Below the pieces are notes generated by a model. That model worked only from the letters and a program-made list of their open reading frames with translations. It had not been told where the DNA came from and made no database searches. Source: a virus. From it: a stretch of DNA of 64,000 nt. Below, in pieces: positions 3 through 13,041 of the stretch (position 1 is the first letter of the stretch; each line of letters starts with the position of its first letter). The DNA lies in IMG/VR virus record IMGVR_UViG_3300038379_000741, positions 12,941 to 76,940 of that record. One strand, 5' to 3'. A program made the position numbers and the translations under genes.

Positions 3-392
3 GCGCGCGCCCGAGCCGGGCGTAAGGCCTGGGCCGCCGACGTCGGCTACTTCACGCTCGAGAGCGCCCTCTGCACCTACAAGTCCTGGCACCGCCCGAA
101 CCGCCGCTACCCGAACGTCTACGCCGACATGATGGTCGAGCGCATCCAGATCGCCGAGGAGCACTGGGCCGAGCCCCTCGACATCTTCTGGCGGATCCGC
201 CGGGAGTCGCTGCCCCCCGTCCTCCGCCTCGAGGACAACCCCAACGATCCCGGAGTCGCCCCGGAGAAGCAGAACCGCTATCGCGAGACCGGCGAGGTCG
301 TCTGCATGGACATCGACTGGCCCTGCTTCGCCAGCGAGTTCAACGACGCGCTCCACGGCTACACGACGCGGGCGCCATCTGGGTCCAAGTGA
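3..392 (+). CDS. Amino acid:DNA transferase (alpha-glutamyl/putrescinyl thymine pyrophosphorylase clade 2-like), 5'-truncated by window edge
   Basis: The frame is open from base 3 and reads DVGYFTLESALCTYKSWHRPNRRYPNVYADM...GEVVCMD, which I recognise from aGPT-PPase2 proteins of T-hypermodifying phages. It overlaps the P-loop kinase gene. Confidence 0.7.
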   Translation, partial: ARARAGRKAWAADVGYFTLESALCTYKSWHRPNRRYPNVYADMMVERIQIAEEHWAEPLDIFWRIRRESLPPVLRLEDNPNDPGVAPEKQNRYRETGEVVCMDIDWPCFASEFNDALHGYTTRAPSGSK

Positions 393-964
393 GACACCGC
401 CTCGAGTACCTCAACCACCGCGCCGTCTTCGTCGTCGGGGCACCTGGGGTCGGCAAGACTACGGTCGTGCGGGCCCTCCTCGAACCCCACGAGTCCATCA
501 CCCGCTTCCTGGTCGAGAAGCCGAAGTGGACGGTCTGCAAGGACATCGTGGCCGCCGGGCACTACACGGGCGGGACCTTCGACGGGGCCGACACGGTTCC
601 GTACGGCGGGGTCGAGGAGGCCCTCAAGTTCTGGGACCAGGAGTTCAAGACGACCAAGAGGGTCACGATCCTGGACGGCGACCGGTTCTCGCACGACAAG
701 GTCGTCCAGTGGTTCCAGAAGCGCGCGTGCCCGATCGTGGTCGTCTACTTCACCGCCGCCGACAAGGTCCTGGCGAAGCGTCGAGCGAAGCGCGGGAGCA
801 ACCAGAACGCGACGTGGCTGAAGGGTCGTGTGACGAAGTCCCGAAACTTCTACGACGCGGCGAGGGAGAAGGCCGACGGCCTCAAGATGACCGTCTTCGC
901 CGTCGACCTCTCCGGCCGCAGCGACGCCATCATCCGTGAGCTGAAGAAGTACCTCGACCTCTGA
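389..964 (+). CDS. P-loop kinase, 5-hydroxymethyluracil DNA kinase-like
   Basis: Walker A GAPGVGKT, plus GHYTGGTFDGAD, ILDGDRF and RGSNQNATWLKGRVTK motifs typical of phage 5-hmU DNA kinases. Adjacent to the aGPT-PPase-like gene. Confidence 0.72.
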   Translation: MRHRLEYLNHRAVFVVGAPGVGKTTVVRALLEPHESITRFLVEKPKWTVCKDIVAAGHYTGGTFDGADTVPYGGVEEALKFWDQEFKTTKRVTILDGDRFSHDKVVQWFQKRACPIVVVYFTAADKVLAKRRAKRGSNQNATWLKGRVTKSRNFYDAAREKADGLKMTVFAVDLSGRSDAIIRELKKYLDL

Positions 965-983
965 GGCGCGCCATCAACGAGGG

Positions 984-1382
984 ATGACGATGCCGCCGAC
1001 CGACCAAACCACCGAGGAGCTGCGCTTCCGACTCCTCGACCCCCGCTCCATCGTCCTCGACCTCGTCCTCGAGTGGGCGGAGAAGATCGGCGAGCAGGGC
1101 ACCGCGAAGATTACCCGGCACGAGCTTCGGCACGCCGAGGAGGCCCCGGTCGAGGTCGTCTGGAGCATGGTCATGTTCGTCCGCAACCACCGCGACGAGA
1201 AGCTCCAGCTCGGGGCGGTCATACACTTCGACGACGCGCCCAAGGACGGCGTCGAGCCCCGCTTCGTCCTCCGCAAGCTCGCCGCCACGGTCTGGAAGCT
1301 CTCGCCGTCGATCCTCCAACCCAACTTCCACGGCTACGTCACGCTCGTCGGCGTGCCCGACCCGGCACCATGGGAAGGTTGA
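984..1382 (+). CDS. Hypothetical protein (132 aa)
   Basis: GC3-rich ORF that fills the gap between neighbours. Confidence 0.6.
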   Translation: MTMPPTDQTTEELRFRLLDPRSIVLDLVLEWAEKIGEQGTAKITRHELRHAEEAPVEVVWSMVMFVRNHRDEKLQLGAVIHFDDAPKDGVEPRFVLRKLAATVWKLSPSILQPNFHGYVTLVGVPDPAPWEG

Positions 1383-1410
1383 CCTTCGACTCCATCTGCG
1401 TGTGTCGGTC

Positions 1411-2076
1411 ATGAGCCCTCGTGGTTGGTTTCTGGCCATCGAGGGGCCCGACGGCACCGGCAAGACCACCCAGGTCGAGCGCCTCCTCAAGCAGTTCCAG
1501 GGTTCCGTCCTGGTCCCGGGGTGCTCGAGGTCGCCGATCGGCAAGTTGGTGCGGCGCGGGTTGTCGGGCGAGGAGCCGCTCGATCCGTTCGAGATGCAGT
1601 GCGCCTACACGGCCGACCGCCTCGCGCGCGACGGGACGATCCGGAACCTGCTTGAGGACGGGACCCTGCTCGTCGCCGACCGCTGGACCATGAGCGCCCT
1701 CGTCTACGGCGCCCTCCACCTCGAGGACCGACACGACGTCCGCGAGCACCGCTCCTGGCTCTTCGAGATCAACGCCCCCGTCGCCGTCCCCGACCTCTAC
1801 GTCGTCCTGCTCGCCACGCCGGAATGCATCTTCGACCGACTCCAAAAGCGCTTCACTGCCGACGGTGGCAAGCGCGAGGTCTACGAGCGGGACGACCTCG
1901 TCCGGAAGGCCGTGGCCGGCTACAAGGACATCGTCGACGGCGGTCACTGGATCGAGTCGCCCATCCACGCGATCGACACGACGGACATGACCGAGGACGA
2001 CGTCGCGGACGCGGTAACGATGGCGTGGAAGGGGCTCGAGTCGGGCAGGTTCAAGAAAAAAGAAAAAAAGACTTGA
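1411..2076 (+). CDS. tmk: Thymidylate/dNMP kinase
   Basis: IEGPDGTGKTTQV P-loop, YTADR, DRWTMSALVYG and PDLYVVL motifs of dTMP kinases. Confidence 0.85.
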   Translation: MSPRGWFLAIEGPDGTGKTTQVERLLKQFQGSVLVPGCSRSPIGKLVRRGLSGEEPLDPFEMQCAYTADRLARDGTIRNLLEDGTLLVADRWTMSALVYGALHLEDRHDVREHRSWLFEINAPVAVPDLYVVLLATPECIFDRLQKRFTADGGKREVYERDDLVRKAVAGYKDIVDGGHWIESPIHAIDTTDMTEDDVADAVTMAWKGLESGRFKKKEKKT

Positions 2077-5224: not shown

Positions 5225-5799
5225 AAGGAAGCGACATGGAACCCGTGAAAGAGATCAAGGATTTGGCCGAGGACGTGGCCGCCAACCACGTGCAGTCGAT
5301 TGCTGCGATCGAGCGCGAGCGCGAGTCGGCCGCCCTGCTGCTGGTCGCGGTCCTGGACGCCGTGCGACAGGCGGCGCCGGCGCTCGCGTCGCGGGTGCCC
5401 GAACACGTCAAGGGAGACGTGCGTGAGTCGAACTGGCAGGACGCCGCGGTCTCGCACTTCCCGTGGCGCGGGATCAAGCTCGTAGGTGGGCCGCTGTTTC
5501 GGGCCGACGGCATCGTCGAGGGTGCCGCTCTCCACTTCGACGAGGACGGCAACCTTCGGATCGTCAGCTACTCGGGGATGTGGACCAAGGACCATAAGGC
5601 CGAGTGGGTGTCGAAGGCGTCCGACCCGGTCACGTGCCGGCAGGTCGTCGACGGTAGGTGGTCGATCGAGGGAATCGTCGAAACATTCGCCCATCACCTC
5701 CGCCGGCACGCCGAGGGGGCACGGGGCAGGCGCGCCGATCAGGCCGCCAGGCTCGCCGATCGTTATGAGGCCATCGTGACGTTGCTGGGGGAGCCATGA
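5221..5799 (+). CDS. Hypothetical protein (192 aa)
   Basis: Coupled ORF that overlaps the start of the Cas12m-like gene. Confidence 0.6.
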   Translation: MKGSDMEPVKEIKDLAEDVAANHVQSIAAIERERESAALLLVAVLDAVRQAAPALASRVPEHVKGDVRESNWQDAAVSHFPWRGIKLVGGPLFRADGIVEGAALHFDEDGNLRIVSYSGMWTKDHKAEWVSKASDPVTCRQVVDGRWSIEGIVETFAHHLRRHAEGARGRRADQAARLADRYEAIVTLLGEP

Positions 5800-7355
5800 T
5801 CCGTGTCTACAAATTCGGTGCACGTCCACCAATGAATCGTGACCTCGTCGTGTCGCAGCTCCACGCGGCGCACGACTACCGCAACACGCTGACGGAGATC
5901 GAGCGCGGCCGGCGCGATGCTGTGCGCCTCGTCTACGAGACCGACGAGATCCGCGAGGCCGCAGACGCGCTCAAGCACGCGACGAAGAGCGACTTTCGCG
6001 CGCGAAAGAAAGCGCTCTATGCGCTGCGTCGCGAGGCGATGGAAGCCAATCAGGAAGAGATCCAACGCATCAACGGACTCGCCGCCGATCTGCAACGCGG
6101 CGCCCGCGAGCTGACGCACACATTCTGGGGAACGTACTTGGACATCGAATCGCAGGCGCAGCAGGCGCGTGCGGATCCGCTCTACGGCGACGATGGACTG
6201 ACACCTCACGCGCCGCGTTTCGTTCGCTGGCGCGATCCGATGCAGGGTCAGCTCGGGGTCCAGATTCAACGTCTGACGACGACAGTCGACGTCCTTGCCG
6301 GGAAGTGCTCGTATGTCCGGGTCGAGCGGCGCGACAAGGGCTACGCCACCCTATGGCTCCGCGTCGGGAGTGATGGACGCGATCCGATCTGGGCACGCTG
6401 GGACATCAAGATGCACCGCGAGGTGCCGAACGCGGCGCGCTGGAAATGGGTCCGTGTCTCGTGCGTGCCGCGATCCTTCCGGGACAAACCCGAGTACCGC
6501 GAGACGTGGACGGTCGAGATCACCGTCGACGATCCGGCTCCTGATGCTCGTTCGCTCGACCGCACGCTGTCGGGTGCGGTCGCCATCTCGTGGTCGTGGG
6601 ATGCTATGCCGGACGAGTCGATCCGCGTCGCATCGTGGCGCGACACGCGCGGACAGGTCGGGGAGATCGTAGTCCCCGTGTCAATCACAAAAGGCATCCG
6701 CAAACCAGACGGAATCCGTGCGGTGCGCGACCTCGTCTGGAACGATGCACAGCCGAAGATCGCTCGCGCCATCAAGGAGAGCCAAGACGCCACGCCTTGG
6801 CTCGTGGAGGCTGCGAACACCATGCCCTACTGGAAGTCGCTCGGCCGCGTACACGAACTCGCCCGCCGTTACCGTGTAGAGGGCTGTACATCTGCGGTCG
6901 CGGCCTACGAGATGATCCACGCGTTTTGTGACCGCGATCTGCACCTCGCCGACTACGAGCGCAATGCGCGCGACGAAGCGATCCGCGAGCGACGTGAGAT
7001 GTACCGCGTACTCGCTGCGCAATGGGCGCGTACGTACCGGCATGTGCTCTTGAGCGACCATGATCTGTCGCGCGAGGCTCGGCGGGGCGAGGACTCGGAT
7101 GTGCGGTTCACAGCTTCGCCGAATCAACTTCGTGGCGCCCTGAAAAACGCGTTCGGCGCGGACGCGATCATGGCCACTTGGGACAAAGAGGAGGGGTGGT
7201 GCGAGCGCGCATGTGCCGCGTATTTTACGGCTGGCGCTCGCAGCGAGATGTTCGCGCAACCAAAGGAAAAAACGACGAACGCATGGGCGTCACGCAAGAA
7301 AAAGAAACAAGAGAAGGAGGCCGCTCGCAAGCCAGACGGTAATGCGGCGGAATGA
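5796..7355 (+). CDS. cas12m: Cas12m (type V-M / V-U1)-like RNA-guided effector, predicted nuclease-dead, 519 aa
   Basis: Colinear motifs recalled from MmCas12m: FWGTY, GQLGVQIQR, LRVGSDGRDPIW...MHREVP, AISWSW...VASWR, GEIVVP, YWKSLGR, EMYRVLAA...VLLSD and ASPNQLR. The RuvC-I acidic position is Ser265, RuvC-II is Asp421, and there is no CxxC Zn finger. The gene directly abuts a CRISPR array. Confidence 0.8.
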   Translation: MIRVYKFGARPPMNRDLVVSQLHAAHDYRNTLTEIERGRRDAVRLVYETDEIREAADALKHATKSDFRARKKALYALRREAMEANQEEIQRINGLAADLQRGARELTHTFWGTYLDIESQAQQARADPLYGDDGLTPHAPRFVRWRDPMQGQLGVQIQRLTTTVDVLAGKCSYVRVERRDKGYATLWLRVGSDGRDPIWARWDIKMHREVPNAARWKWVRVSCVPRSFRDKPEYRETWTVEITVDDPAPDARSLDRTLSGAVAISWSWDAMPDESIRVASWRDTRGQVGEIVVPVSITKGIRKPDGIRAVRDLVWNDAQPKIARAIKESQDATPWLVEAANTMPYWKSLGRVHELARRYRVEGCTSAVAAYEMIHAFCDRDLHLADYERNARDEAIRERREMYRVLAAQWARTYRHVLLSDHDLSREARRGEDSDVRFTASPNQLRGALKNAFGADAIMATWDKEEGWCERACAAYFTAGARSEMFAQPKEKTTNAWASRKKKKQEKEAARKPDGNAAE

Positions 7356-7374
7356 TTGGCATCGTGGAGGAGAT

Positions 7375-7792
7375 ATTCAAAGGGCAGCGCAAGGCCTTCA
7401 ACGTTGCGACAGCATCGGTTGATTGAAGGGGCGCGTCGGGTCCAGCTCATTCAAAGGGCAGCGCAAGGCCTTCAACGTTGCGACCGGAGCGACCTCGGGG
7501 AGGTGCGCGCGATTCAAAGGGCAGCGCAAGGCCTTCAACGTTGCGACCAGATCAACGCGGTCGACCGGATCGAGAGCGCCACGTAGATTCAAAGGGCAGC
7601 GCAAGGCCTTCAACGTTGCGACTCGTGCTCGCGCTCTCGCCGACGCTCTCGAGGATCACGCCTCATTCAAAGGGCAGCGCAAGGCCTTCAACGTTGCGAC
7701 GAATCGATCCATCACTTCTCTCCCGGGATCAAAGAGCAGCGCGGGGCTCCAACGTTGCGACAGCGGCCATTCGCGAGGCTCCAACGTCGCGC
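7375..7792 (+). CRISPR. Mini CRISPR array: 5 identical 36-bp repeats, 5 spacers, degenerate trailer repeats
   Basis: ATTCAAAGGGCAGCGCAAGGCCTTCAACGTTGCGAC occurs at 7375, 7449, 7512, 7587 and 7665. Spacers are 38, 27, 39, 42 and 27 bp. A degenerate copy lies at 7728-7761 and a remnant at about 7773-7792. The 3' stem CGCAA/TTGCG is followed by AC. Confidence 0.97.
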
Positions 7793-9693: not shown

Positions 9694-10209
9694 ATGGAAA
9701 CGAAGAACAACCCCGGCGCCTTTGACGGCTTGGAGCACGCCGCTCGGGTGGCCAAGCGCCCGACCTTCGAGGCCATCTCGATGGAGCTGGCTTTCGCGCT
9801 CTCCAGCCGTTCCACCTGCCGGCGGCTCGCGGTCGGGTGCGTGATCACCAGCACCGACCACCGCAAGGTCCTCTCGGTCGGGTACAACGGGAACGCCACG
9901 GGCCTCGACAACGACTGCGACGGTCACGAGCCCGGCAAGTGCGGCTGCCTGCACGCTGAGGAGAACGCCGTCATCAACGCCGACGTCCCCCGCTCTGTCG
10001 AGAAGTTCGTGTACTGCACCAACGAGCCCTGCGTGCTCTGCGCGAAACGGCTCATCAACCTCGGCGGAGTCCGTCGGGTCATGTTCGTCGAGCCCTACCG
10101 CTTGGGGGCGCGCGCCACACTCGCCCGAGCCGGCATCAAGGCCTTCCAGATGGACCCCATCACGCCAGAGAACCGGAGCGTCTGGGGGCACCGGGGAGTT
10201 TGGTGGTAA
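9694..10209 (+). CDS. dCMP deaminase
   Basis: STCRRLAVGCVI, GYNG, HAEENA and PCVLCAK Zn-deaminase motifs. Confidence 0.9.
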   Translation: METKNNPGAFDGLEHAARVAKRPTFEAISMELAFALSSRSTCRRLAVGCVITSTDHRKVLSVGYNGNATGLDNDCDGHEPGKCGCLHAEENAVINADVPRSVEKFVYCTNEPCVLCAKRLINLGGVRRVMFVEPYRLGARATLARAGIKAFQMDPITPENRSVWGHRGVWW

Positions 10210-10512
10210 ATGTTCGTCCACTGTCCCCTCTGCAACAAGGTGCTCGGCAACCTCCCCACCGAGCCCCGGGATCCTTGGGACGAGCTGGTCAAGAACCACT
10301 TCGCGGATTGCCCGGTCCGGACGGCCGGCGAGCGCATTGAGCGGCTGGAGTTGGACAACCTCGCCCTCCAGGAGAACCTCGGCCAAGCCCTCGGCCGCCT
10401 CGCCCGCCTCGAGAAGGCCTTCGCCGAGCACGGCATCGACGATCTGCTCGCCGGAAAGTTTCCGCCCGAGGGGGCATGTCCTGAGTGCGGGCACCACGAG
10501 GTACGAAAATGA
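10210..10512 (+). CDS. Zn-finger/coiled-coil hypothetical protein
   Basis: CPLC...HFADC and a C-terminal CPECGH. Confidence 0.6.
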   Translation: MFVHCPLCNKVLGNLPTEPRDPWDELVKNHFADCPVRTAGERIERLELDNLALQENLGQALGRLARLEKAFAEHGIDDLLAGKFPPEGACPECGHHEVRK

Positions 10513-12236
10513 AACGCATGGCCAAGAGAAAGTTGCTTGACGGGACCGCTGCGTCCATGTTCAGTAAACGCATGGAATTGGAGGCACGTCGGCAGGAGCT
10601 TCAAATGGCGCTCGACGCAGACCGTTCCCAAGAAGAGCGGAACAAACTCGGGCAGTTCGCCACTCCTCTCGAGCTGGCGCGCGAAGTGGCTCGTGCAGCC
10701 CTCAACTACCTCAGGGGGCCAATTCGGTTTTTCGACCCCTCAATTGGGTCGGGTTCGTTCTTCTCTGCACTCCTCAACGAGCGCGGTCATCGAAAGCTCG
10801 CGTCCGCCCGAGGCATCGAGTTGGACGAGCGTTTTGTCAAGGCCGCCCGCAACCTATGGTCCGACGCCGGCCTCGTGGTGAATAACGGGGACTTCACGAA
10901 GTTGAAGCCACATACCGAGAACGCGACGCGCGCTACTCTCGTCTTGGCAAACCCGCCGTACGTCCGACATCACCATCTTGACCGGGAACAGAAGATCGGG
11001 CTCCAACGACGCGCCGAATCAATGCTGCGCTGCAAGGTGAGCGGGCTTTCGGGGCTCTATGTTTATTTCGTGCTCCTAACGCACGAATGGATGTCTGACG
11101 ACGGCGTTGCCGCTTGGCTGATCCCGAGCGAGTGGATGGACGTGAATTATGGGGCAGCTCTCAAAGAGTACTTATGCTCTCGCGTTACGCTTCTTCGGGT
11201 ACACCGCTTCGATGCAGCCGACGTGCAGTTCAAGGATGCGCTCGTCTCATCGGCGGTCGTCTTGTTCCGCAAGCGGGAGGCACCCAAAGGAGGTGTATGC
11301 GACATGACTGTAGGCTCTCTTTCGGCGCCGGTTCGGAGCCAGCAAATCTCCCTTACCGAGCTTCGACACGCTCCGAAATGGAGCTTTTATTTCCGCCCAA
11401 ACGGACAAGAACACAAGATGGACGTTCCAACTGTGACGCTCGGCGACCTATTTGACGTCAAGCGAGGGATTGCTACCGGAGCAAATGACTTCTTCGTCCG
11501 ACCCCGCGCGGAGTTCCAGGCGATCGGGATTCCCGACAAGTTTCTCCGACCCGTACTTCCTTCCTCCCGCCACCTCACGGGAGCGGTCATTGAGCGCGGC
11601 CCAGATGGCTATCCCAAACTTGAAGTTCCTCTCGCACTCCTTGACTGCAACCTTCCGGAGGAGCAAGTCAGGAAGGCGTTCCCGAAGTTGTGGAGCTACC
11701 TCGAATCGCCCGAAGGGCAGCAGGTTCGTACCGGGTATCTCACAAGCGGGCGGCGACCCTGGTACTCACAGGAGCAACGTGCATCAGCTCCCATCGTCGC
11801 GACATACATGGGGCGTGGCGGCCGAATGACGAAGCCGTTCAAGTTCTTCTGGAATCGCTCAGATGCAACGGCCACGAACGTGTACTTGATGCTAATCCCG
11901 AAGGGCGAGATCGCCGACGTATTAGGCGCGGAACCGGAGAAGGCGAAGGCCATCCGCGCGTTCCTCGACGAGACCGACGTTTCGGAGCTTCTCGGCCACG
12001 GCCGCGTTTACGGCGGTGGCCTTCACAAGCTCGAACCGAAAGAACTGGGGCGGCTGGACGCCTCTCGGCTGGTTCGTGATCTGGGTCTCGCGGTCAGTTT
12101 GCACCCTTCGTGGCGATCCCGAGGAGCGCGCACTCGGCCGCGACCTCGGCGTGCGCCTGGGCGAGGGCTTCCGCCTCCTCGCTCTCGCGCGCAGCACGGT
12201 CCTCTGCGAGCGCGGCCTCCCGCTCACTCGCGGTGA
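10509..12236 (+). CDS. Orphan N6-adenine DNA methyltransferase (Eco57I/TaqI-class, XamI-associated-like)
   Basis: GQFATP, FFDPSIGSGSF, NPPYVRH, LYVYF, RGIATGANDFF and YGGGLHKLEPKEL motifs. Codon usage is more AT-rich than the flanks. Confidence 0.88.
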   Translation: MKRMAKRKLLDGTAASMFSKRMELEARRQELQMALDADRSQEERNKLGQFATPLELAREVARAALNYLRGPIRFFDPSIGSGSFFSALLNERGHRKLASARGIELDERFVKAARNLWSDAGLVVNNGDFTKLKPHTENATRATLVLANPPYVRHHHLDREQKIGLQRRAESMLRCKVSGLSGLYVYFVLLTHEWMSDDGVAAWLIPSEWMDVNYGAALKEYLCSRVTLLRVHRFDAADVQFKDALVSSAVVLFRKREAPKGGVCDMTVGSLSAPVRSQQISLTELRHAPKWSFYFRPNGQEHKMDVPTVTLGDLFDVKRGIATGANDFFVRPRAEFQAIGIPDKFLRPVLPSSRHLTGAVIERGPDGYPKLEVPLALLDCNLPEEQVRKAFPKLWSYLESPEGQQVRTGYLTSGRRPWYSQEQRASAPIVATYMGRGGRMTKPFKFFWNRSDATATNVYLMLIPKGEIADVLGAEPEKAKAIRAFLDETDVSELLGHGRVYGGGLHKLEPKELGRLDASRLVRDLGLAVSLHPSWRSRGARTRPRPRRAPGRGLPPPRSRAQHGPLRARPPAHSR

Positions 12237-12378: not shown

Positions 12379-13041
12379 ATGGATGAGTACCGCCTCGAGG
12401 TGATGCCGGAGGGTGCCGATGACTGGGTCCTGCTCCAGAAGTGCTCGGGACCGATCCCCAAGGTGGGTGACACCATCAACGTCTACAGCGATCGACTCCC
12501 CCACGAGCGCACCTACTTCAACGTCGTCGACGTCCTGCATCACATGAACGCGTTTGGGCTCGATTCGGGCGAGACAGCCGCGGTATCGGAGATCTACGTC
12601 CACCTCGAGCCCGTCGACAGCGAGCCCCTGCGCCTCCTCTGCGACTGCGACGAGACCTGCTGGCGAGCCCACGGCATCGACGCCGACGACGAGTGCGGCT
12701 TCTGCGGCCTGCTCCGTCCCACCCCCCGCCCGAAGTGGAACAAGACCTCCGACCAGTGCTGGATCGCCAACGTCGACGTCCCCAGGCTCCAGGTCGTCGA
12801 GTCCGAGGACCCCGCCGAGCCTCGCGCCCAGATCCCCTACGTCCGGAAGGGCGTGGCCCGGCTGGTGGTCGAGAAGACGCCCGGCACCCAGGGCCAGTTC
12901 CGCTGGTGCGTGATCCTCGAGTCCGAGATCGAGCGCTACAGCGACAACCTCGGGGGTCACGAGGACTTCGCGGCTCGGGGATGCTCTCGCACCGCCGAGG
13001 GCGCACGCCAAGCCGCTATGGCTGCCGAGAAGCACGTCTGA
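12379..13041 (+). CDS. Hypothetical protein (220 aa)
   Basis: GC3-rich portion of ORF 12016-13041, with CDC...C...CGFC Cys motifs. Confidence 0.6.
   Translation: MDEYRLEVMPEGADDWVLLQKCSGPIPKVGDTINVYSDRLPHERTYFNVVDVLHHMNAFGLDSGETAAVSEIYVHLEPVDSEPLRLLCDCDETCWRAHGIDADDECGFCGLLRPTPRPKWNKTSDQCWIANVDVPRLQVVESEDPAEPRAQIPYVRKGVARLVVEKTPGTQGQFRWCVILESEIERYSDNLGGHEDFAARGCSRTAEGARQAAMAAEKHV

Follow-up and report, generated by a model that had tools for sequence, protein, structure and literature searches.

The left edge of a 64,000-nucleotide stretch of viral DNA, hereafter the window (positions 12,941-76,940 of IMGVR_UViG_3300038379_000741, a 94,388-bp IMG/VR virus contig), carries two adjacent open reading frames (ORFs) on the plus strand: ORF1 (3-392), related to the amino acid:DNA transferases (ADDT, formerly aGPT-Pplase2; PF18724, PUGT fold), and ORF2 (389-964), related to the 5-hydroxymethyluracil (5-hmU) DNA kinases. 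An original prediction had read them as part of a module that modifies thymine in the phage DNA, perhaps by a new chemistry. The ORFs, their motifs and their 4-base overlap (GTGA) are present as described, but the transferase gene proved to be 5′-truncated and frame-disrupted, and no hydroxymethylase was found in the 94 kb of sequence. We conclude that the locus is probably a decayed, deletion-scarred thymidine-hypermodification cassette of the TET/JBP type, with neither thymine oxidation nor a transferase, and that it gives no lead to a new chemistry.

The locus abuts the left edge of the window, so the analysis was extended to the 12.9 kb that precede it (L001) and to the contig's right end (L002, genome 76000-94388). 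The contig is linear and without end repeats, has a G+C content of 67% and is estimated by CheckV to be 88% complete. No cultured close relative was found; in the INPHARED phage collection, no TerL protein exceeds 28.5% identity to that of this phage. Coordinates refer to the window unless they are marked as genome positions.

ORF1 is the 3′ remnant of a transferase gene

ORF1 is open at the 5′ end of the window, and its homology to the family reaches upstream to genome ~12826 (window -114). In the whole genome its frame first opens at 12766, which allows a product of at most 187 aa, compared with ~320 aa in the family. Against a profile built from 17 full-length homologues it scored E=1e-84, yet it covered only profile positions 144-315 of 318; the predicted family and motif were borne out, but the gene is incomplete. 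The same limits were obtained by tblastn, in which only residues 147-316 of the 324 of Hydro gp3 and residues 150-314 of the 321 of the L008 transferase, the closest full-length relative, aligned to the genome. The N-terminal halves of Hydro gp3, Montesquieu gp42, and the two closest full-length relatives had no match anywhere in the genome. In the alignment of the 17 homologues, homology of ORF1 starts sharply at VLGRDDLDWH, leaving ~160 N-terminal residues absent, and the block immediately before it, a near-invariant D..GS.SHRNG in the homologues, is replaced by unrelated residues. Neither ORF1 nor any of the six frames of the 94-kb contig contains the N-terminal motifs of the clade (WFAxLNGNTQ, DTDRR, FGRLSxFS, and GSxSHRNG), and a profile of the ADDT N-terminal half, which recovered every control locus, found nothing in the contig. 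ORF1 has no Pfam match; PF18724 gave none at E≤1 for ORF1 and none genome-wide at E≤10, and the same model does match full-length relatives of ORF1. We therefore annotate ORF1 as the 3′ remnant of an ADDT gene and a probable pseudogene.

Part of the active site is retained. The Glu/Cys motif LESALC, encoded at ~60-74 and containing the invariant alignment columns E218, S219, and C222, aligns with VETILC of PaMx11 gp46 and corresponds to Glu243/Cys247 of PUGT. The Glu and Cys of this motif are essential in M6 gp51 and ViI gp247 (PMC8989533). The active site of PUGT comprises a front group (Asp24, Tyr47, Tyr51, Glu92, Trp146, and Lys150) and a back group (Glu243, Thr244, Cys247, Lys261, Asp262, and Glu265) (PMC11472151). 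By hhalign, the front-group residues map to the region that is lost in ORF1, an alignment that is weak but collinear with the structural match described below. ORF1 thus keeps the catalytic Cys and a nearby Glu but lacks the N-terminal active-site residues, and it does not encode the complete two-bundle, all-helical ADDT domain of ~230-320 residues.

The link to PUGT came through a structure model, as PUGT was missed when the PDB was searched by sequence, both with ORF1 and with the profile of the family. The model of the full-length relative P0004 (mean predicted local distance difference test score, pLDDT, 89) matched PUGT, a glycinyltransferase of solved structure (PaMx11 gp46, 8z2m), with Z=14.1 over 237 residues; its next structural match scored Z=7.2, and helix-hairpin-helix (HhH) glycosylases were found at Z~7. 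On this predicted model, the clade of ORF1 is a true ADDT clade, because the match to PUGT stands far above those to the HhH glycosylases. Database homologues of 131-198 aa were considered as natural proteins consisting of the C-terminal half only. This was rejected: the ones that we checked start at contig ends, and short homologues that extend further carry the canonical N-terminal motifs, so they are not natural half-size forms.

A ParB-like fragment precedes the remnant in another frame

The coding signal in the G+C content of third codon positions (GC3) lies in frame 0 from genome ~12640 to ~12790 and in frame 1 thereafter, the switch falling at ~12790-12830. The frame-0 piece starts with an ATG at genome 12690 and runs for 47 residues up to the junction. 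It matches the PHROG family of ParB-like partition proteins phrog_2159 (E=1.4e-4), its best tblastn matches are ParB-like proteins of Thermus and Microbacterium phages, and it aligns in register with residues 10-52 of the ParB-like protein of Thermus phage P23-45 (pairwise E=2e-9). Pfam ParB_N did not match the 47-residue fragment, no BLASTP match to the ParBs of L009, Hydro, or Wooper was obtained, and no longer relative of the fragment was found by a word-index search. At genome ~12826-12829, ~115 bases upstream of the window, ParB codon ~47 passes into ADDT codon ~160 with a +1 shift. No slippery or stimulatory frameshift signal is apparent at this junction, and a scan of genome 12300-14000 for sigma-70 promoters and terminators found nothing.

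The arrangement recurs elsewhere. A 1.8-kb Joint Genome Institute (JGI) contig (L007) is colinear from the RuvC-like gene through a clustered regularly interspaced short palindromic repeats (CRISPR) repeat, the ParB fragment, and the junction into the kinase; it differs by 3 single-nucleotide polymorphisms (SNPs) and is identical at the junction. A 7.7-kb Logan contig from a separate Sequence Read Archive run contains the same 187-aa ORF and the same gene order up to the Cas12m-like gene. The truncated 187-aa gene is thus present in three assemblies.

The kinase gene is intact

ORF2 encodes a 191-aa P-loop kinase of the 5-hmU DNA kinase family (Ploopntkinase3; PF18751, 36.8 bits against a cut-off of 27), in agreement with the original prediction. 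A profile of six ADDT-linked kinases built without ORF2 found it with E=5.5e-22 over positions 2-170 of 180, and the thymidylate kinase (Tmk) of the phage scored only 4.6 bits on the same profile. When ORF2 was included, the profile matched the N-terminal half (residues 3-100) of the characterized PaMx11 gp49 kinase with E=2.8e-10. All family motifs are kept, namely the Walker A motif GAPGVGKTT, G-x-D, DGDRF, RGSNQNATWLKGR, and the lid motif RRAKRG..QNATWLKGRVTK, which corresponds to RRAxRG..QNxSWxKGRxTK in the family. By these sequence features, ORF2 is an intact member of the 5-hmU DNA kinase family. Its GTG start codon lacks a visible Shine-Dalgarno sequence. Since this codon overlaps the stop codon of the upstream remnant, which is presumably untranslated, translation of ORF2 may depend on the upstream ORF and may suffer.

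No source of 5-hmU was found in the contig, and no tailoring gene was recognized among the ORFs scanned

The 94-kb contig contains no TET/JBP thymine dioxygenase detectable with Pfam Tet_JBP (PF12851). A clade-specific TET/JBP profile found six positive controls (Hydro 1e-43, Wooper 1e-48) and nothing in this genome; a clade-specific ParB profile likewise recovered the positive-control loci and nothing here. There is no ThyA-type deoxyuridylate (dUMP) hydroxymethylase (PF00303, Thymidylat_synt) in the contig, and no second ADDT, aGPT-Pplase3, or HMUDK_hel. The sequence, an estimated ~88% of the genome, thus holds neither of the two kinds of 5-hmU source, dUMP hydroxymethylase or TET/JBP.

New chemistry had been suggested to depend on tailoring genes upstream of the window. 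The upstream 12.9 kb contains no dUMP hydroxymethylase, and no pyridoxal phosphate (PLP)-dependent or radical S-adenosylmethionine (SAM) tailoring gene was recognizable among the ORFs scanned, which included this region; several of these ORFs have no family match. Tailoring enzymes (PLP, radical SAM, flavin adenine dinucleotide (FAD), amidoligase, and similar) were not found near the core genes, whereas L008, L011, L012, and Montesquieu have such genes.

Related loci combine the transferase, the kinase, and a dioxygenase

In actinophages and metaviromes, TET/JBP cassettes comprise a ParB-like activator, a thymine dioxygenase (5mYOX), an ADDT/aGPT-Pplase2, and a 5-hmU DNA kinase (Lee et al. 2021, PMC8989533; O'Toole et al. 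2026, PMC13229309). Examples are gp1-4 of Mycobacterium phage Hydro and gp1-4 of Gordonia phage Wooper (PMC8989533; PMC13229309). Wherever the context sufficed, we found the ADDT clade and the kinase together with a TET/JBP gene, as in Hydro, Wooper, and the loci L008, L009, L011, L012, and L018. The order ParB, TET, ADDT, kinase is shared by Hydro (genes 1-4), Wooper (genes 1-4), and L009; in L008, L011, L012, and L018 these genes are ordered differently and are often accompanied by tailoring genes of the PLP, amidoligase, or GATase kinds.

Scans of IMG/VR with the kinase, the RuvC-like protein, and the 344-aa ORF that follows the Tmk gene gave distant loci only or nothing. Two degenerate-pattern scans of metagenome contigs gave nothing and then one chance match in a contig of 37% GC.

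Several of the related loci have features of their own. In L009, the TET/JBP gene (L009:5342-6352) has an in-frame stop at codon 297; this cassette may also be damaged, or the TET/JBP gene call may be too long. In L016 (IMG/VR, 97.6 kb), one stop-free frame at 5396-7573 encodes a TET/JBP domain and, after it, the closest relative of the kinase (48% identity), possibly a thymine-dioxygenase/5-hmU-kinase fusion protein, with no ADDT within 7 kb. P0002 (322 aa, on a 1.7-kb JGI contig) is an ADDT homologue whose N terminus is cut by the contig end. Its C-terminal extension resembles the PLP-type (ACC-deaminase-like) enzymes beside ADDT in L008, L011, and Montesquieu, and it appears to be a transferase/PLP-enzyme fusion. 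The homologue P0006, on a 95.7-kb contig, stands in a different gene context.

Neighboring genes and supply of thymidine triphosphate

Downstream of the kinase, a 132-aa ORF (984-1382, plus strand) has no Pfam or PHROG match, and its membership in the cassette is not demonstrable. Five homologues only were found in databases, and P0078, the one whose outside context was read, has no recognized modification genes. Language-model look-alikes in the Atlas (score 0.96) are Enterochelin-esterase N-terminal/CBM48-type beta-sandwich domains, which we regard as a lead only. It is followed by ORF4 (1402-2076, plus strand), the Tmk (dTMP kinase) gene (PF02223, 60.7 bits against a cut-off of 27; phrog_761, E=3.7e-26), with the motifs EGPDGTGKTT and ADRW in its translation; this is the nucleotide kinase that the original prediction had placed nearby. 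The deoxycytidylate (dCMP) deaminase that it had placed at 9694 was likewise recovered (9694-10209, plus strand; PF00383, dCMP_cyt_deam_1, 62.7 bits; phrog_174, E=3e-34), with its zinc motifs HAE and PCxxC intact. A ThyX gene lies at genome 6324-7154 (PF02511, 141 bits). As judged from these family assignments, the dCMP deaminase, ThyX, and Tmk constitute the standard route from dCMP through dUMP and thymidylate (dTMP) to dTDP, the ordinary supply of thymidine triphosphate (dTTP). The 344-aa ORF after Tmk was considered as a divergent TET/JBP or PLP enzyme, like the 344-aa gene of L011, and was rejected, as it has no similarity to either and a DUF6011 motif only.

Also in the early region, an ORF of 583 aa (10485-12236) encodes an Eco57I/N6_Mtase-type adenine methyltransferase, a DNA-modification gene unrelated to thymine modification; its last ~60 residues look out of frame (Arg/Pro-rich). 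Of the two flanks, L001 (genome 1-12488) holds genes for ThyX, a UvsX-like recombinase, a DinG-like helicase, an SbcD-like phosphoesterase, a zinc-hook SbcC-like protein, and a RuvC-like resolvase. Also encoded in L001 and L002 are a family B DNA polymerase, a DnaG-type primase, a DnaB-like helicase, and a GH25 lysin that carries a PG_binding_1 domain, together with ORFs of 481, 532, 539, and 561 aa without a family match.

A solitary CRISPR repeat lies upstream of the ParB fragment

The phage carries a Cas12m-like CRISPR array with a 36-nt repeat at 7375-7765. One perfect extra copy of the repeat, the only one in the genome, separates the RuvC-like gene from the ParB fragment at genome 12584-12619. 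The ATG of the fragment (12690) follows 70 bases downstream and the junction ~200 bases downstream; the copy is also present in the independent contig L007. The 35 bases before it are identical to the 3′ part of spacer 4 of the array, so that the unit at genome 12549-12619 (window -391 to -321) corresponds to 7630-7700. The first 7 bases of spacer 4, its protospacer-adjacent-motif (PAM)-proximal end, are unmatched at the extra repeat, which argues for a copied spacer-repeat unit rather than a target. No meaningful match to the pseudo-spacer that follows this repeat was found in the rest of the genome.

Discussion

The proposed history of the locus starts from the pathway of its relatives. There, a ParB-like activator and a TET/JBP dioxygenase oxidize thymine in DNA to 5-hmU, the P-loop kinase phosphorylates the 5-hmU, and the ADDT swaps the phosphate for an amino acid or amine. 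In the present phage, a deletion would have joined ParB codon ~47 to ADDT codon ~160, at the cost of the remainder of ParB, the entire TET/JBP gene, and the ADDT's N-terminal half. Its length would be ~2 kb for an ancestor with the arrangement of L009, Hydro, or Wooper, a gene order that we infer by analogy. The kinase would be left as an orphan, with neither a source of its substrate nor a transferase partner, and the pathway would have ceased to function. The virion DNA most likely contains canonical thymine, because the deaminase, ThyX, and Tmk supply ordinary dTTP; modified thymine is unlikely because the 94-kb contig has no TET/JBP, ThyA-type hydroxymethylase, or other ADDT and ThyX is present.

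Several observations weigh against this history. ORF1 keeps the essential Glu/Cys motif, has an in-frame TTG at genome 12769, and still looks coding. The kinase is fully intact with a coding-type GC3 of 0.94, which means either a recent deletion or some retained use. A TET/JBP gene, a hydroxymethylase, or a second ADDT could sit in the unassembled ~12% of the genome. The scores that identify the 47-residue fragment as ParB by sequence are weak, and an hhalign comparison of the fragment with six cassette-linked ParBs was not significant, though the expected motif aligned. No close relative with an undeleted, ancestor-like locus was found. Lastly, the protein P0043 (L012:6001-6831, on an unrelated 57-kb Logan contig) is an in-frame ParB-N::ADDT-C fusion, in which ~70 residues of a ParB N-terminal domain are joined to the ADDT from profile position 119 on. 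Its gene stands in a rich hypermodification cluster that also has genes for a PALP enzyme, TET/JBP, the kinase, an amidoligase, and a GATase. Such chimeras might be functional; P0043 represents another ParB/ADDT junction of independent origin, and either a further product of deletion or a genuine chimeric architecture may underlie it.

For an error of assembly or sequencing, the real phage having an intact ADDT gene, it speaks that the contig is metagenome-derived and has a CRISPR repeat ~200 bases upstream, since repeats can cause misjoins. The defect is not a simple indel, however: ~160 ADDT codons are absent, with unrelated ParB-like sequence in their place, the independent JGI contig has an identical sequence where it crosses the junction, having also covered the repeat and the ParB fragment, and the third assembly gives the same 187-aa ORF. 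We consider an artifact very improbable. A working module, to which the kinase and Tmk contribute while the 5-hmU source and a full transferase are hidden in the unassembled ~12% or among very divergent unannotated ORFs, would fit a contig that is 88% complete, linear, and without end repeats, the many ORFs without a family match, and the intact kinase. This we judge unlikely, as these genes are clustered in the relatives and the scar marks their former place, profiles that detect even distant TET/JBPs, such as those of Hydro (1e-43) and Wooper (1e-48), find nothing, the N-terminal half of the ADDT is absent in all six frames, and ThyX suggests ordinary dTMP synthesis.

The remnants could also have been put to a new use, either as a ParB-N::ADDT-C chimera made by a +1 frameshift or from an internal TTG, or as an orphan kinase acting on another substrate (a nucleotide, or host or competitor DNA), perhaps controlled by the solitary CRISPR repeat in its leader. 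The independent in-frame fusion P0043 in L012 speaks for this, as do the conserved Glu/Cys motif and whole kinase, the identical arrangement in three assemblies, and the perfect repeat of the Cas12m-like array 70 bases upstream of the ParB-fragment ATG. Yet the junction shows no apparent frameshift signal, half the residues that form the active site of the solved homologue fall in the lost region, and P0043 is a single case among 75 homologues. The agreement of the three assemblies shows recency rather than selection, because only a few SNPs separate them. Reuse thus has, in our estimate, a small chance of being correct, and the fuller form, in which a functional chimera or a repurposed kinase has its expression tied by the repeat to the Cas12m-like DNA-binding module, a somewhat smaller one. 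We accordingly favor decay of the cassette by deletion.

Motif-based scans and annotation pipelines would label this phage as thymine-hypermodifying from its aGPT-Pplase2 motif and 5-hmU DNA kinase, so presence/absence calls for such cassettes need checks of domain completeness and of the 5-hmU source. If our reading is correct, the phage would be a natural example of the loss of a DNA-hypermodification pathway, and the repeat of the Cas12m-like module beside the scar could inform how anti-restriction strategies are gained, lost, and swapped.

Comparison with known systems

The closest parallel is with the cassettes of the Hydro/Wooper type. Their ADDTs belong to the same clade and are 42-59% identical over the part retained here, the kinase lies directly 3′ of the ADDT and shares 4 bases with it, just as in Wooper and L011, and a ParB-like N terminus stands on the 5′ side. 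Unlike them, this phage has no TET/JBP, only a small part of ParB, and an ADDT without its first ~160 residues, and the two remaining pieces are out of frame. Here the locus lies in the early/recombination region and not beside the terminase, and the kinase is followed by Tmk and the ORF without a family match.

PUGT/PaMx11 gp46 (8z2m, 8z2n), M6 gp51, and ViI gp247 are characterized transferases that work with a 5-hmdU (5-hydroxymethyldeoxyuridine) DNA kinase (gp49, gp54, and gp67/gp243). The likeness lies in the fold of the full-length clade (Z=14.1), the E-(S/T)-x-x-C motif and the following D...E that are kept in the remnant, and the kinase family, although sequence identity to PaMx11 gp46 is only ~13%. 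These systems differ in that their 5-hmU comes from a ThyA-type dUMP hydroxymethylase before replication, whereas no such gene was found here and the transferase is incomplete. The cluster of Glutamicibacter phage Montesquieu (aGPT-Pplase2, a PLP-type enzyme, a P-loop kinase, and a thymidylate kinase) shares the local order transferase, kinase, thymidylate kinase. Its transferase is 41-54% identical to ORF1 over the retained part, varying with the stretch aligned, but it is complete, at 345 aa, and a PLP-type tailoring gene comes after it; this phage has neither.

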